A DNA stretch of 64,000 bases. Source: Aigarchaeota archaeon. GTDB taxonomy: Archaea > Thermoproteota > Nitrososphaeria_A > Caldarchaeales > Wolframiiraptoraceae. The stretch covers positions 18,332-82,331 of the forward strand of contig JANXDW010000026.1 in assembly GCA_025058515.1 (NCBI GenBank), given 5' to 3'. The position numbers and the translations under genes were made by a program. The number at the start of each line of letters is the position of its first letter. Positions within the stretch are counted from its first letter, which is position 1. Below the pieces are notes generated by a model. That model was not told the origin of the DNA. It saw only the letters and a list, made by a program, of their open reading frames with translations, and ran no database searches. Shown here piece by piece: positions 4,325 through 40,622 of the stretch.

Positions 4325-4553
4325 CTCAGAAGCCTAAAATTAGAATACTATAACACTATTTAACTCCTATTACACTATTCCTCAGACAATAAGTGGGTAG
4401 AGGTGAGGTATGAAGAAAACACTCCAAGTTATAGATTTTTACTCAATCATTATCTGAACTACGATATAGCGGGATTAAAGATTCTTGAAACGTCTTATAA
4501 CTTATAGTCTAATTTTGTATCTTTTCATCCAACCTCAACACTTAAGGAGTACC

Positions 4554-4977: not shown

Positions 4978-5685
4978 CTATTTTAAGTTTAATACTTCTT
5001 GAAGTTTAGGTGGTATCCGAAGTTCTGAGAAGCATATCCCACAAACGAATAGGTCTCCTGAGATCTGCTGACTAAGTTTTAATGGAGCATTACATACAGG
5101 GCAAGACTTACTTGGAACATCTGGAGCAAATATTCTCTTACCACATGCTTCACATTTATTTGAACCAACTGGATTAAGCTTTCCACAATGTGGACATACA
5201 AGCTCTGAAGCTCTAGATACTACTTCTATAGTAGGTTCTTTCTCTACAGGTTTCTCCACCTTCTTTTCTACAGTAGGTTTCGCACCTGTCTCGATAATCT
5301 CCTCTATCTCTTTCTCTATCTCTTCAACAACGCTCTCTTTACTAAGTTCTACTGGACCGCTCACTCGTTCTGTAGTAAGTTTTTGAGGTTCTCTTCTAGG
5401 TGATGGTCTTCTAATAACTGGCGTAGGAGCTGGATACGCATAGCTTCCAGAAGTTATTGTTATACCTGTTCTTACAGCTCTAACATATAAGAGGAGCCCG
5501 ATACCACTTATTACTGCACCAATTATTATTGCATAAATTAAGTAGGAGAAGCCCATTACTGCTGTATCTAAGAATATTCTAATAGAGTTGTCTACGGGTA
5601 GAGATACGTAGTAAACTACTAGACCTAGGATCAATGCCACTCCAAGTAGACTTAAAGTCATGCCGATGATCATGAGCGGTGTCAT
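4978..5685 (-). CDS. Membrane-anchored protein with C-terminal tandem zinc ribbons (CPHCG..CEACG; CPVCN..CGIC)
   Basis: Two or three N-terminal TM helices, an acidic and Pro-rich linker, then four CxxC pairs. Its start overlaps the upstream Rio2 stop (ATGA). Confidence 0.4.
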   Translation of the reverse strand: MTPLMIIGMTLSLLGVALILGLVVYYVSLPVDNSIRIFLDTAVMGFSYLIYAIIIGAVISGIGLLLYVRAVRTGITITSGSYAYPAPTPVIRRPSPRREPQKLTTERVSGPVELSKESVVEEIEKEIEEIIETGAKPTVEKKVEKPVEKEPTIEVVSRASELVCPHCGKLNPVGSNKCEACGKRIFAPDVPSKSCPVCNAPLKLSQQISGDLFVCGICFSELRIPPKLQEVLNLK

Positions 5686-37810: not shown

Positions 37811-37987
37811 AAGCTATCTTAAGATTGATGAGTTTTATTATTTTATGTATATGTGAGTTACAGAAATAATCCTATAAGCTTAACCGAGGTTATATTTTGT
37901 AGAAGTCGGGGGTTAATCTGATGAAGGAGGCTGGAAAGAATGTCTACTGACTATAAGATAAAGCTGTAGTTCTTCTCGATGTATTAT

Positions 37988-39190
37988 CTATAAATATTTA
38001 TCTCTTGATAAATTCCTATTGAGAAAACAGGAGGGGTCAGAAGAGAGCGGATCTCCAGAGTATGCGTATGATCTTGCACGGCAGCCTCCACATACTTCTC
38101 TTAAATTACATTCTCTACAAAATCCTTTCAAGTTTCTTCTATCTCTAAAAATATTGAATACCTCTCCTCTCCATATTTCTTCCGCATTCTTTTCTAAGAG
38201 ATTTCCAGTATTAATTGGTAGGAAGGGGCATGGCCATACATCTCCATTTGGTTTAATATAGAACATTCCCCTTCCAGCTATACATCCTTTAAAGATTAGT
38301 GAGGCGAGCCTCGGATTTAAATTCTTCTTTAGAGCTAAGTATGCGAAGAATTCAGGTAGGCCTACAGGTATTATGATAGGCTTAACCGTGCTCTGGATAT
38401 TTTCTAAAGTTTTTATTACGTAATAAAATTCACTTATGGATAATGCTTCATTGATGAGCTGTTCTCCTCTTCCAGAAGGCATTAACTGATATAGTAGTGT
38501 TACATGTGCTTCAAGCTTATCTGAAATCTCCAGTAATTGCTTAAGCTGGTTTAAGTTTCTCCTCGATAACGTTATATTTATCTGAGTGTACATTTTTTCT
38601 CTGCGAGCATTTATTATTCCTTTAATGGCTGATCGCAATGCCCCCCTGACCCCTCTATAATCATCATGCTGGTCGGGAGAGGTAAAGTCTATGCTTACCG
38701 CAACGCCTTCAACACCATTCTCAACCATCTTCCTAACCACATCTCTAGTGATTAGTACACCGTTAGTAGCAATTACTATGCTAAACCCCATATTTCGAGC
38801 ATACCTGACAAGGTCGAGTAGATCATTCCTTATAAGAGGTTCTCCACCTGTAAAGACGAGCATACGGAAATCATCAACATGTGCAAGGTTCTCTATAATC
38901 TTCTTTGCTTCTTCTGTACGTAATTCTCTATCCCCTTTTTCGCCACCTCTTGCATGGCAGTGGACGCATCTTAAATTGCAGTTAGATGTGACTTCGTAAA
39001 CTGGGTGTACTGGGTATCCGAAGCATCCTAGACCAATGGCCCCAGCTGCAACGTTTAAGAGAGTCTTAATGTATCTGAGCCAGTATCCTAAACCTCTCCA
39101 TCCCGTTATCTCTTTAAACGTTGTAAGTGTCATTGCTTGTCGCATTATAAGTGAGGGCGGAATATATGGAGGTAAAACAAACCTATTCAT
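37988..39190 (-). CDS. Radical SAM enzyme with C-terminal SPASM domain (AhbD/PqqE-like architecture)
   Basis: CNLRCVHCHARG (Cx3Cx2C) preceded by VYEVTS, TIM-barrel core, and a C-terminal Cys-rich tail CPFLP...CRECNLREVCGGCRARS. Confidence 0.7.
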   Translation of the reverse strand: MNRFVLPPYIPPSLIMRQAMTLTTFKEITGWRGLGYWLRYIKTLLNVAAGAIGLGCFGYPVHPVYEVTSNCNLRCVHCHARGGEKGDRELRTEEAKKIIENLAHVDDFRMLVFTGGEPLIRNDLLDLVRYARNMGFSIVIATNGVLITRDVVRKMVENGVEGVAVSIDFTSPDQHDDYRGVRGALRSAIKGIINARREKMYTQINITLSRRNLNQLKQLLEISDKLEAHVTLLYQLMPSGRGEQLINEALSISEFYYVIKTLENIQSTVKPIIIPVGLPEFFAYLALKKNLNPRLASLIFKGCIAGRGMFYIKPNGDVWPCPFLPINTGNLLEKNAEEIWRGEVFNIFRDRRNLKGFCRECNLREVCGGCRARSYAYSGDPLSSDPSCFLNRNLSRDKYL

Positions 39191-39201
39191 AACCGTAATC
39201 T

Positions 39202-40131
39202 TTACATTACACTTCCGATTACGTATGAAATTGACAATAGCATCGTCGTTAAAGCATATGTTATGATTGTGCCAGCCATTGCTGGTTTCAGTTTCTGGGG
39301 ATACTCGTAATATCTAATACAAGTAGATATACTTCTAACTGTTAATGGGATTGTTGCAAGAGCGATAAGACCTATCAATGGAATAATCTCCATAAAGACT
39401 CCTAATAATATGGAGATATAGCTAAATACCATTAAGAAAATGTAGAAACTTCTAGAATTTTCTCTACCTAGCCTAACTACAAGGTTATTCTTTCCGATGG
39501 ACTTGTCCGCTCGATAATCTGGGAACTCGTTAATCCATATTACAGCAGTTATCAGAGCTGCTGGTACTAGTGAAGGGATTAGAAAGCTGGTTGATGGAAG
39601 ACTGCCCGTTTGAACATAATAACTACCGAAAGGTATTAGTATACCATAGTTTAACCCTATCATCACTTCTCCTAGTCCTCTGTAAGCCCACATCAGTGGA
39701 GGCGCAGTGTAGAATGCACCTGCGAGGAATCCAATAATAGTCAGAGGGATAATGTATAGACCCACTGTCACTGTAAAGTACACCGCTATAGTGGAAGCGA
39801 TTATCCATGAAACTAACCCCATCTTAAAAACACTTGAAGGCTCAAGTAGCTTTCTTGGAAGTATACGGCTCCCCGCATTAAACGGTGTAATATCTTCTTC
39901 CATAATCACAACATCTACACCACTCCTATAGTCAAAGAACTCATTAAAGGTATATGTCCCGATCATTACAAATATGATTCCCGCTAATGTTAATAGAAAG
40001 TTGAGCATATTAAATACTCCTAGATCATAGAATGCTATGCACGTACCTAGGATAACTGGCGGAATACCAGCTAAAAAGAACTTGACTCTAATGGCCTCAA
40101 GCCAGACTCGTATCTTGAAGACCATAGACAT
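39202..40131 (-). CDS. UbiA-family aromatic prenyltransferase, MenA-like (1,4-dihydroxy-2-naphthoate polyprenyltransferase-like)
   Basis: Polytopic, 309 aa. Asp-rich motif NEFFDYRSGVD matches the MenA-type N(D/E)xxDxxxGxD spacing. A second Asp-rich region is DYRADKSIGKNN. Confidence 0.55.
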   Translation of the reverse strand: MSMVFKIRVWLEAIRVKFFLAGIPPVILGTCIAFYDLGVFNMLNFLLTLAGIIFVMIGTYTFNEFFDYRSGVDVVIMEEDITPFNAGSRILPRKLLEPSSVFKMGLVSWIIASTIAVYFTVTVGLYIIPLTIIGFLAGAFYTAPPLMWAYRGLGEVMIGLNYGILIPFGSYYVQTGSLPSTSFLIPSLVPAALITAVIWINEFPDYRADKSIGKNNLVVRLGRENSRSFYIFLMVFSYISILLGVFMEIIPLIGLIALATIPLTVRSISTCIRYYEYPQKLKPAMAGTIITYALTTMLLSISYVIGSVM

Positions 40132-40399
40132 CTAGCACTCAGTACCTTCCCGGAGAATTTATCCTTAACTCTGAAACCAAATTTTAAACTTTTAAATTAC
40201 TGAATCTCCGTTATGTTGGATCTTGTTAAATCTCAGATTAACGATGATTATCTATTCTCTACCAATTTTACTATATTTTCAATTGAAGGCAATTTATCAG
40301 TTCATAATCTTCTACTACTTAAAGAACCATGTATTTAAAATTCGCCAATTCGATTGTCCATTACCTTCTTCACCCTTTCTAGAGTGGCCTAGATATAGT

Positions 40400-40520
40400 T
40401 GCGGGGGGTGGGATTTGAACCCACGAACCCCTACGGGATTCCCCACTTTAATTCAGGGGTTCTCATCTCTTATTTGAGAACCTGAACCCTGCGCCGTTGA
40501 CCAGGCTTGGCTACCCCCGC
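40400..40520 (-). tRNA. tRNA-Leu (anticodon CAG) with two predicted introns
   Basis: Minus-strand sequence GCGGGGG-TA-GCCAAGCCTGGTCAACGGC-G-CAGGG-TTCAGG[about 21-nt insert]CCCTG-[about 15-nt insert]-TCCCGTAGGGGTTC-GTGGGTTCAAATCCCAC-CCCCCGC-A. The acceptor and T arms are perfect, the D arm is Leu-type, the variable arm is long, and the discriminator is A. Confidence 0.8.
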
Positions 40521-40622
40521 TTATCTAATTTAATTATCCTCTAAGAGTATTAAAGATAGTTTTTAATTATAAATCTTAATTGATGTGGTTGGTCTCTTTT
40601 CCATAACCTAGTTTTATATCTC

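Follow-up and report, generated by a model that had tools for sequence, protein, structure and literature searches.

At positions 40400–40520 on the minus strand of the window, by which we mean the whole 64,000-nucleotide stretch of DNA that was analysed, lies a 121-nt gene for tRNA-Leu(CAG), its length including the discriminator A73. The initial annotation had placed a tRNA-Leu(CAG) at these positions with its strand unnamed, and the identification is confirmed by a full-length match to Rfam RF00005 that runs from 40520 to 40400, covers model positions 1–71 and scores 43.6 bits (E = 5.8e-6) against a gathering score of 29. No other Rfam match in the 64 kb rises above the gathering score. With a score above that threshold over the full model, and with a Leu anticodon, a long variable arm and A73 once its introns are removed, the gene belongs to the class II tRNA-Leu genes. 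Each arm that had been described can be read in the sequence: the acceptor stem GCGGGGG/CCCCCGC, the D arm GCC(A)-AGCCUGGUCAA-(C)GGC, the anticodon stem CAGGG/CCCUG with the anticodon CAG at 40482–40484, the Leu-type variable arm U-CCC-GUAG-GGG-UU-C and the T arm GUGGG-UUCAAAU-CCCAC, followed by A at position 73. A CCA tail is absent from the encoded gene. The Rfam alignment accommodates the surplus length by inserts of 24 nt in the anticodon loop and 27 nt in the variable region, and the 121-nt precursor folds better than its own dinucleotide shuffles (z = −3.8), none of 200 shuffles folding as well.

Read along the minus strand, the gene is made up of three exons and two inserts. Exon 1 (GCGGGGGUAGCCAAGCCUGGUCAACGGCGCAGGGUUCAGG; 40 nt, 40481–40520) holds positions 1–37, that is, the 5′ strand of the acceptor stem, the D arm, the 5′ strand of the anticodon stem and the loop as far as G37. 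It is followed by intron 1 (UUCUCAAAUAAGAGAUGAGAA; 21 nt, 40460–40480) at the canonical position 37/38, by exon 2 (CCCCUG; 6 nt, 40454–40459), which supplies positions 38–43 as C38 plus the 3′ strand of the anticodon stem, and by intron 2 (AAUUAAAGUGGGGAA; 15 nt, 40439–40453) at the non-canonical position 43/44, where the anticodon stem gives way to the variable arm. Exon 3 (UCCCGUAGGGGUUCGUGGGUUCAAAUCCCACCCCCCGCA; 39 nt, 40400–40438) contributes positions 44–73, with the variable arm, the T arm, the 3′ strand of the acceptor stem and the discriminator A. The 21-nt and 15-nt inserts had been proposed earlier as TTCTCAAATAAGAGATGAGAA and AATTAAAGTGGGGAA, and both prove exact.

The junctions are fixed by genes that have no introns. 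A one-genome-per-species scan for Leu(CAG) genes that share the anticodon arm returned 39 loci. The 85-nt spliced sequence is identical, with no base differing, to the intronless tRNA-Leu(CAG) of four loci: Ca. Wolframiiraptor gerlachensis (L018), two uncultured Nitrososphaeria (L019 and L029) and a metagenome contig (L122). Exon 1 equals, base for base, nucleotides 1–40 of the L018, L019 and L029 genes; G43, the last base of the anticodon stem, stands directly before U44 in the spliced sequence; and neither junction tolerates a shift of even one base against the intronless genes. Given this identity and the immovable junctions, the introns lie at 37/38 and 43/44. The spliced 85-nt sequence, as present in L018, scores 53.3 bits with Rfam compared with 43.6 bits unspliced. 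tRNAscan-SE 2.0 accepts non-canonical introns when their removal raises the score (PMC8450103), and the inserts thus satisfy that criterion.

Upstream of the gene, a putative archaeal TATA box, TTTATAA (40567–40573, minus strand), lies 47–53 nt before the mature 5′ end, and a second TATA-like sequence, TTTAATA (40547–40553, minus strand), occupies −33 to −27. The motif (A)ATTTATAAC recurs 37–48 nt upstream of the orthologous genes in five other loci (L127, L131, L133, L136 and L139), and the TATA-like element probably drives transcription of the tRNA gene. An 84-aa ORF with a TTG start (40223–40477, plus strand) runs antisense through the gene and is almost certainly spurious.

Directly 3′ of the gene, which ends at 40400, is a 2,486-bp segment (37907–40392) with genes for a UbiA-family prenyltransferase of 309 aa and a radical SAM/SPASM protein of 400 aa. 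The window, GCA_026413845.1 and one Logan contig all contain the segment; in its place the conspecific GCA_033582315.1 has 20 unrelated bases, and the breakpoint of the indel is no more than about 7 nt away from the 3′ end of the tRNA. Integrase-type att duplications and direct repeats were sought at this 2.5-kb indel and none was found, nor was an integrase. In the hot-spring run SRR15826900, Logan contigs are interrupted within the tRNA gene from both sides: L002 ends at 40491 and L126 starts at 40428. These breaks are likely to arise from k-mers in the 5′ half and the 3′ part of tRNA-Leu that are common to many Leu genes of the community, together with the downstream indel, and they may alternatively reflect a polymorphism in the population for the presence or absence of introns.

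Intron 1 carries every element of a strict hBHBh′ motif, with two 3-nt bulges, a 4-bp helix between them, flanking helices on both sides and both junctions within the bulges. The outer helix h is the anticodon stem CAGGG/CCCUG; the central helix H, UUCA/UGAG, is drawn from U32–A35 and is paired at four of four positions; the bulges read G36 G37↓U and A A↓C38, the junction (↓) following the second nucleotide in each; and the inner helix h′, UCUC/GAGA, has 4 bp, no mispair and a 6-nt loop. Excision at 37/38 yields the 7-nt anticodon loop UUCAGGC. In all seven sequences that bear intron 1, every position of H and h′ forms a standard pair; one h′ pair is C–G in four of them and U–A in the other three, a compensatory change, and two H pairs alternate between G–C or A–U and G–U. 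In 2.2% of shuffles of the intron, the central helix forms at the correct register with all its pairs, and the strict BHB is at most about 2 kcal/mol above the local minimum. The pattern of conservation supports the strict BHB as the favoured fold. The relaxed context assigned to this intron in the initial annotation was thus mistaken, as the compensatory change among relatives bears out, and the TTCTCA/TGAGAA hairpin on which that motif had been founded is only a thermodynamic alternative that forms part of the precursor MFE. The labels "relaxed" and "strict" had in effect been swapped: the relaxed intron is the second, at 43/44.

In intron 2, the central helix is formed by C38–C41 with a GGGG located 3–6 nt from the 3′ end of the intron, giving a 4-bp helix with at least one 3-nt bulge whose junction follows the second nucleotide. 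Its register was set by applying the rule of four paired bases, two bulge bases and a cut to the compared junctions, and the bulges then read U42 G43↓A and A A↓U44. The CCCC/GGGG helix is paired at four of four positions in each of five orthologue types and the bulge nucleotides are conserved; within the intron, invariance is confined to the opening AA and the closing hexamer GGGGA(A/U). A helix in the correct register occurs in 0.35% of shuffles. As the central helix does not vary, it offers conservation with zero covariation.

The flanking helices of intron 2 are slight. The inner helix h′ has 2, 2, 1, 0 and 0 bp in the five orthologue types, with 50% of its positions paired and one swap of U–G for G–U; because it is so weak, the 5′ junction lies effectively in a loop, of 11–16 nt. 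The outer helix pairs G36 G37 with the two leading C of the variable stem, amounts to 2 bp and competes with that stem, and G36 G37 adjoin C38 only once intron 1 is gone; constrained folds offer an alternative outer helix between G29–G31 and the CCC of the variable arm. The strict form, with both h and h′ present, is not found here, and we class the intron as relaxed because h′ has 0–2 bp and h has 2 bp that are available only after intron 1 has gone; the predicted structure is a relaxed hBH/bulge–helix–loop (BHL) motif as defined previously (PMC5829648). Two other registers, CCUG/UGGG (as in the precursor MFE) and CCCU/GGGG, were discarded since their cuts fall 1–2 bases off the compared junctions, as was a GGGG-AAU-CCC hairpin, which would put the 3′ junction in a 3-nt loop and lacks bulge–helix geometry.

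Because its central helix borrows C38–C41, the fold around intron 2 (BHB2) requires an open anticodon stem. In the intermediate without intron 1 it is predicted at −29.7 kcal/mol compared with −38.5 kcal/mol for the cloverleaf, about 9 kcal/mol above, and in the local arm it lies 0–5 kcal/mol above the free MFE. BHB2 is therefore above the predicted ground state, so its support comes from register and conservation and not from thermodynamics. Thermodynamic folding by itself recovered neither BHB as the MFE, and we left it out of the positive evidence.

The earlier proposal of two introns, one of them beyond the anticodon loop, holds, and both introns recur at the same sites in relatives. An identical 121-nt gene is present in GCA_026413845.1 and GCA_033582315.1, which belong to the same species (assemblies 99.4–99.9% identical). 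The protein encoded next to the tRNA gene, TerC, has homologues of 64–80% identity in other Aigarchaeota, Nitrososphaerota and Caldarchaeales MAGs, and among the TerC-adjacent loci examined, in those that still have a tRNA gene there (L127–L133 and L136–L141), a tRNA-Leu(CAG) directly follows TerC and bears inserts at exactly 37/38 and 43/44. In the lineage of L134 and L135 the TerC–tRNA synteny is lost. Across the five orthologue types, the window included, intron 1 measures 17–23 nt and intron 2 measures 15–20 nt; the exons are nearly invariant, and the intron interiors are unrelated in sequence with the helix-forming nucleotides kept. Near-invariant exons alongside drifting introns indicate that the gene is under selection, and the distribution is that of a two-intron state ancestral to the clade rather than of a lesion in one genome. 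Downstream of its Leu orthologue, L133 has two more tRNA genes, at 4393–4482 and 5075–5149; for one, of 90 nt, ARAGORN left the anticodon undetermined, and it may itself bear an intron.

A metagenome scan for inserts of 8–38 nt at 43/44 with the exact flanks of the window gene gave no match, an artefact in that the pattern required U32 and the orthologues have C32. A second metagenome scan, keyed to the shared 5′ half, gave 81 loci, none with an insert at 43/44; it yielded one contig (L050) that has intron 1 only, in a clearly homologous 21-nt form. We observed the 43/44 site in no group other than the clade identified by TerC synteny.

ARAGORN, which had been suggested as a check on the introns, reports no tRNA in the whole 64-kb window and misses every intron-bearing Leu gene at the orthologous loci, yet it calls the 85-nt intronless sequence as tRNA-Leu(cag). 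One alternative is a decaying pseudogene, disrupted by insertions while an intact tRNA-Leu(CAG) elsewhere in the genome does the work; in its favour are the failure of ARAGORN to recognise the gene and the view of only 64 kb of the genome, so that a second copy could exist. But ARAGORN also misses L050, the only gene examined with the 37/38 intron alone, and the failure on the window gene is for that reason a limit of the tool. Decay would, moreover, be hard to square with exons that stay conserved and fully paired in five diverged syntenic types while the introns drift, with a conserved TATA-like element upstream or with splice-motif geometry in exact register at both inserts. We regard a pseudogene as very improbable.

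A second alternative is that only the insert at 37/38 is an intron and that the 15-nt insert stays in the mature tRNA, giving a variable region of 29 nt between positions 44 and 48. Class II tRNAs do tolerate long variable arms, and the Rfam model absorbs the insert within its 27-nt variable-region insertion. Against this, in all of 120 other Leu genes retrieved by a shared anticodon arm or 5′ half, nothing is inserted after position 43, and the intron-free genes among them are all 84–85 nt long. The insert varies in length (15–20 nt) and in sequence across orthologues and has no conserved extended stem; its invariant nucleotides are just those that the splicing motif needs. If retained, it would also compete with the anticodon stem and with the variable stem. 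This reading we consider very unlikely.

The locus is thus read, with high confidence, as a functional single-transcript tRNA-Leu(CAG) gene with exons of 40, 6 and 39 nt and two protein-spliced introns of the BHB class. We infer from sequence a pathway in which transcription would begin from the conserved TATA-like element and the splicing endonuclease would cut the strict BHB of intron 1 (BHB1) at G37↓U and A↓C38 in a cloverleaf-like fold, after which the exons would be ligated. The anticodon arm would then refold, the GGGG of intron 2 displacing G29–G31 and capturing C38–C41; the endonuclease would cut 43/44 at UG↓A and AA↓U, an RtcB-type ligase would join the ends and the anticodon stem would re-form. 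RNase P and the CCA-adding enzyme would finish the termini. Judged by geometry, the most likely order is intron 1 first and intron 2 second. The Aigarchaeota EndA is reported to be an (αβ)2 heterotetramer of broad specificity (PMC5829648, PMC3082918), and by analogy an (αβ)2 EndA is a reasonable candidate for the enzyme acting here.

How strictly the two steps depend on each other is a separate question. C38 is needed by BHB1 as well as by BHB2, and BHB2 further draws C39–C41 out of the anticodon stem, which is the outer helix of BHB1; the two motifs are mutually exclusive. The 43/44 intron may be a conserved strand-swap device that imposes an obligatory order and passes a 6-nt micro-exon from one BHB to the next, with the invariant GGGG possibly mimicking the 5′ strand of the anticodon stem; the order would be obligatory because the outer helix of intron 2 needs exons 1 and 2 to be ligated. 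We put this forward only tentatively and think it on the whole unlikely. If true, it would provide, in a Caldarchaeales clade, a natural system for refolding-dependent sequential tRNA splicing or, alternatively, a checkpoint on the folding of the anticodon arm.

The same sequences can be accounted for by two genuine introns that are removed independently and in either order, a broad-specificity endonuclease cutting bulges as they transiently form. Enzymes of the (αβ)2 type cut the relaxed motifs HBh′, hBH and BHL (PMC5829648), and the central helix and bulges of intron 2 can form with intron 1 still present: a conformer of this kind, with the variable stem and the intron-1 hairpin, is predicted at −39.5 kcal/mol compared with −43.7 kcal/mol for the cloverleaf with BHB1, and the alternative outer helix between G29–G31 and CCC needs no excision of intron 1. 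It is less easily reconciled with a strictly adjacent outer helix, G36 G37 with CC, that exists only after ligation of exon 1 to exon 2, and with two BHBs that share C38, compete for C39–C41 and never occur together in one molecule. We regard independent removal as a serious possibility, if not the one we would choose.

In practice the gene matters most for annotation. It escapes standard bacterial-mode tRNA finders, and with ARAGORN passing over both it and its orthologues, genomes of this clade would seem to be without a CUG decoder unless an intron-aware archaeal search is used. The paired introns at 37/38 and 43/44 mark a group of Aigarchaeota/Caldarchaeales MAGs, in keeping with the TACK-type lineage suggested earlier from the introns. 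The organism is an Aigarchaeota/Nitrososphaeria (Caldarchaeales) MAG from a hot spring: exact protein matches assign the window to hot-spring MAGs carrying the NCBI labels "Aigarchaeota archaeon" or "Nitrososphaeria archaeon". With its middle exon of 6 nt and its mutually exclusive folds, the gene is a compact test case for ordered splicing; it leaves the current understanding of archaeal tRNA splicing unchanged.

The same tRNA is interrupted elsewhere at other positions. In eight loci from Caldarchaeum and Pelearchaeum MAGs and one Nitrososphaerota MAG, about 30 nt are inserted where the D loop meets the 3′ strand of the D stem, instead of at 37/38 and 43/44 as in the window gene; two further loci have a 15–20-nt insert inside the variable loop of tRNA-Leu(CAG), and three, from some Pyrobaculum and Thermoproteus MAGs (Thermoproteaceae), have inserts in the 5′ half, in the D-arm region. 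With the insert sites differing among TACK lineages, tRNA-Leu(CAG) appears to have been interrupted independently several times, which suggests repeated intron gain in one isoacceptor. In the literature searched, which did not include the main intron survey papers, we found no earlier record of the 43/44 site.

Compared with the canonical archaeal hBHBh′ intron at 37/38, intron 1 has every element and differs in nothing material, being simply short at 21 nt. Intron 2 resembles the relaxed introns (HBh′, hBH and BHL, cut by (αβ)2 or ε2 EndA) in its one defined AAU bulge, its 4-bp helix and its short outer helix, and differs from them in that its central helix uses the 3′ strand of the anticodon stem and that just 6 nt make up exon 2. 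Ca. Caldiarchaeum subterraneum and the Thermoproteales are documented to have multi-intron tRNA genes (PMC3082918, PMC3293823, PMC8450103); for the Aigarchaeota, tRNAs with several introns, including introns in the D, V and T arms, are known together with a heterotetrameric EndA (PMC3082918, PMC5829648), and for closely spaced tRNA introns stepwise BHB formation, one intron being removed before the motif of the next can form, has been described (PMC8450103). The window gene, likewise from a TACK archaeon, is of the same kind as those of C. subterraneum and the Thermoproteales, which carry two or three short BHB-class introns at 37/38 and in the D, V or T arm. The multi-intron genes of C. subterraneum are Leu(UAA), Gln(CUG)/Glu(CUG) and Thr(GGU), the CUG gene being given as Gln in one paper and as Glu in the other; here the gene is Leu(CAG). 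Multi-intron tRNAs, V-arm introns and stepwise BHB formation are thus already described for the lineage, and what is specific to this gene is its isoacceptor, Leu(CAG), its intron site at 43/44, a middle exon of 6 nt and a central helix that uses an anticodon-stem strand.
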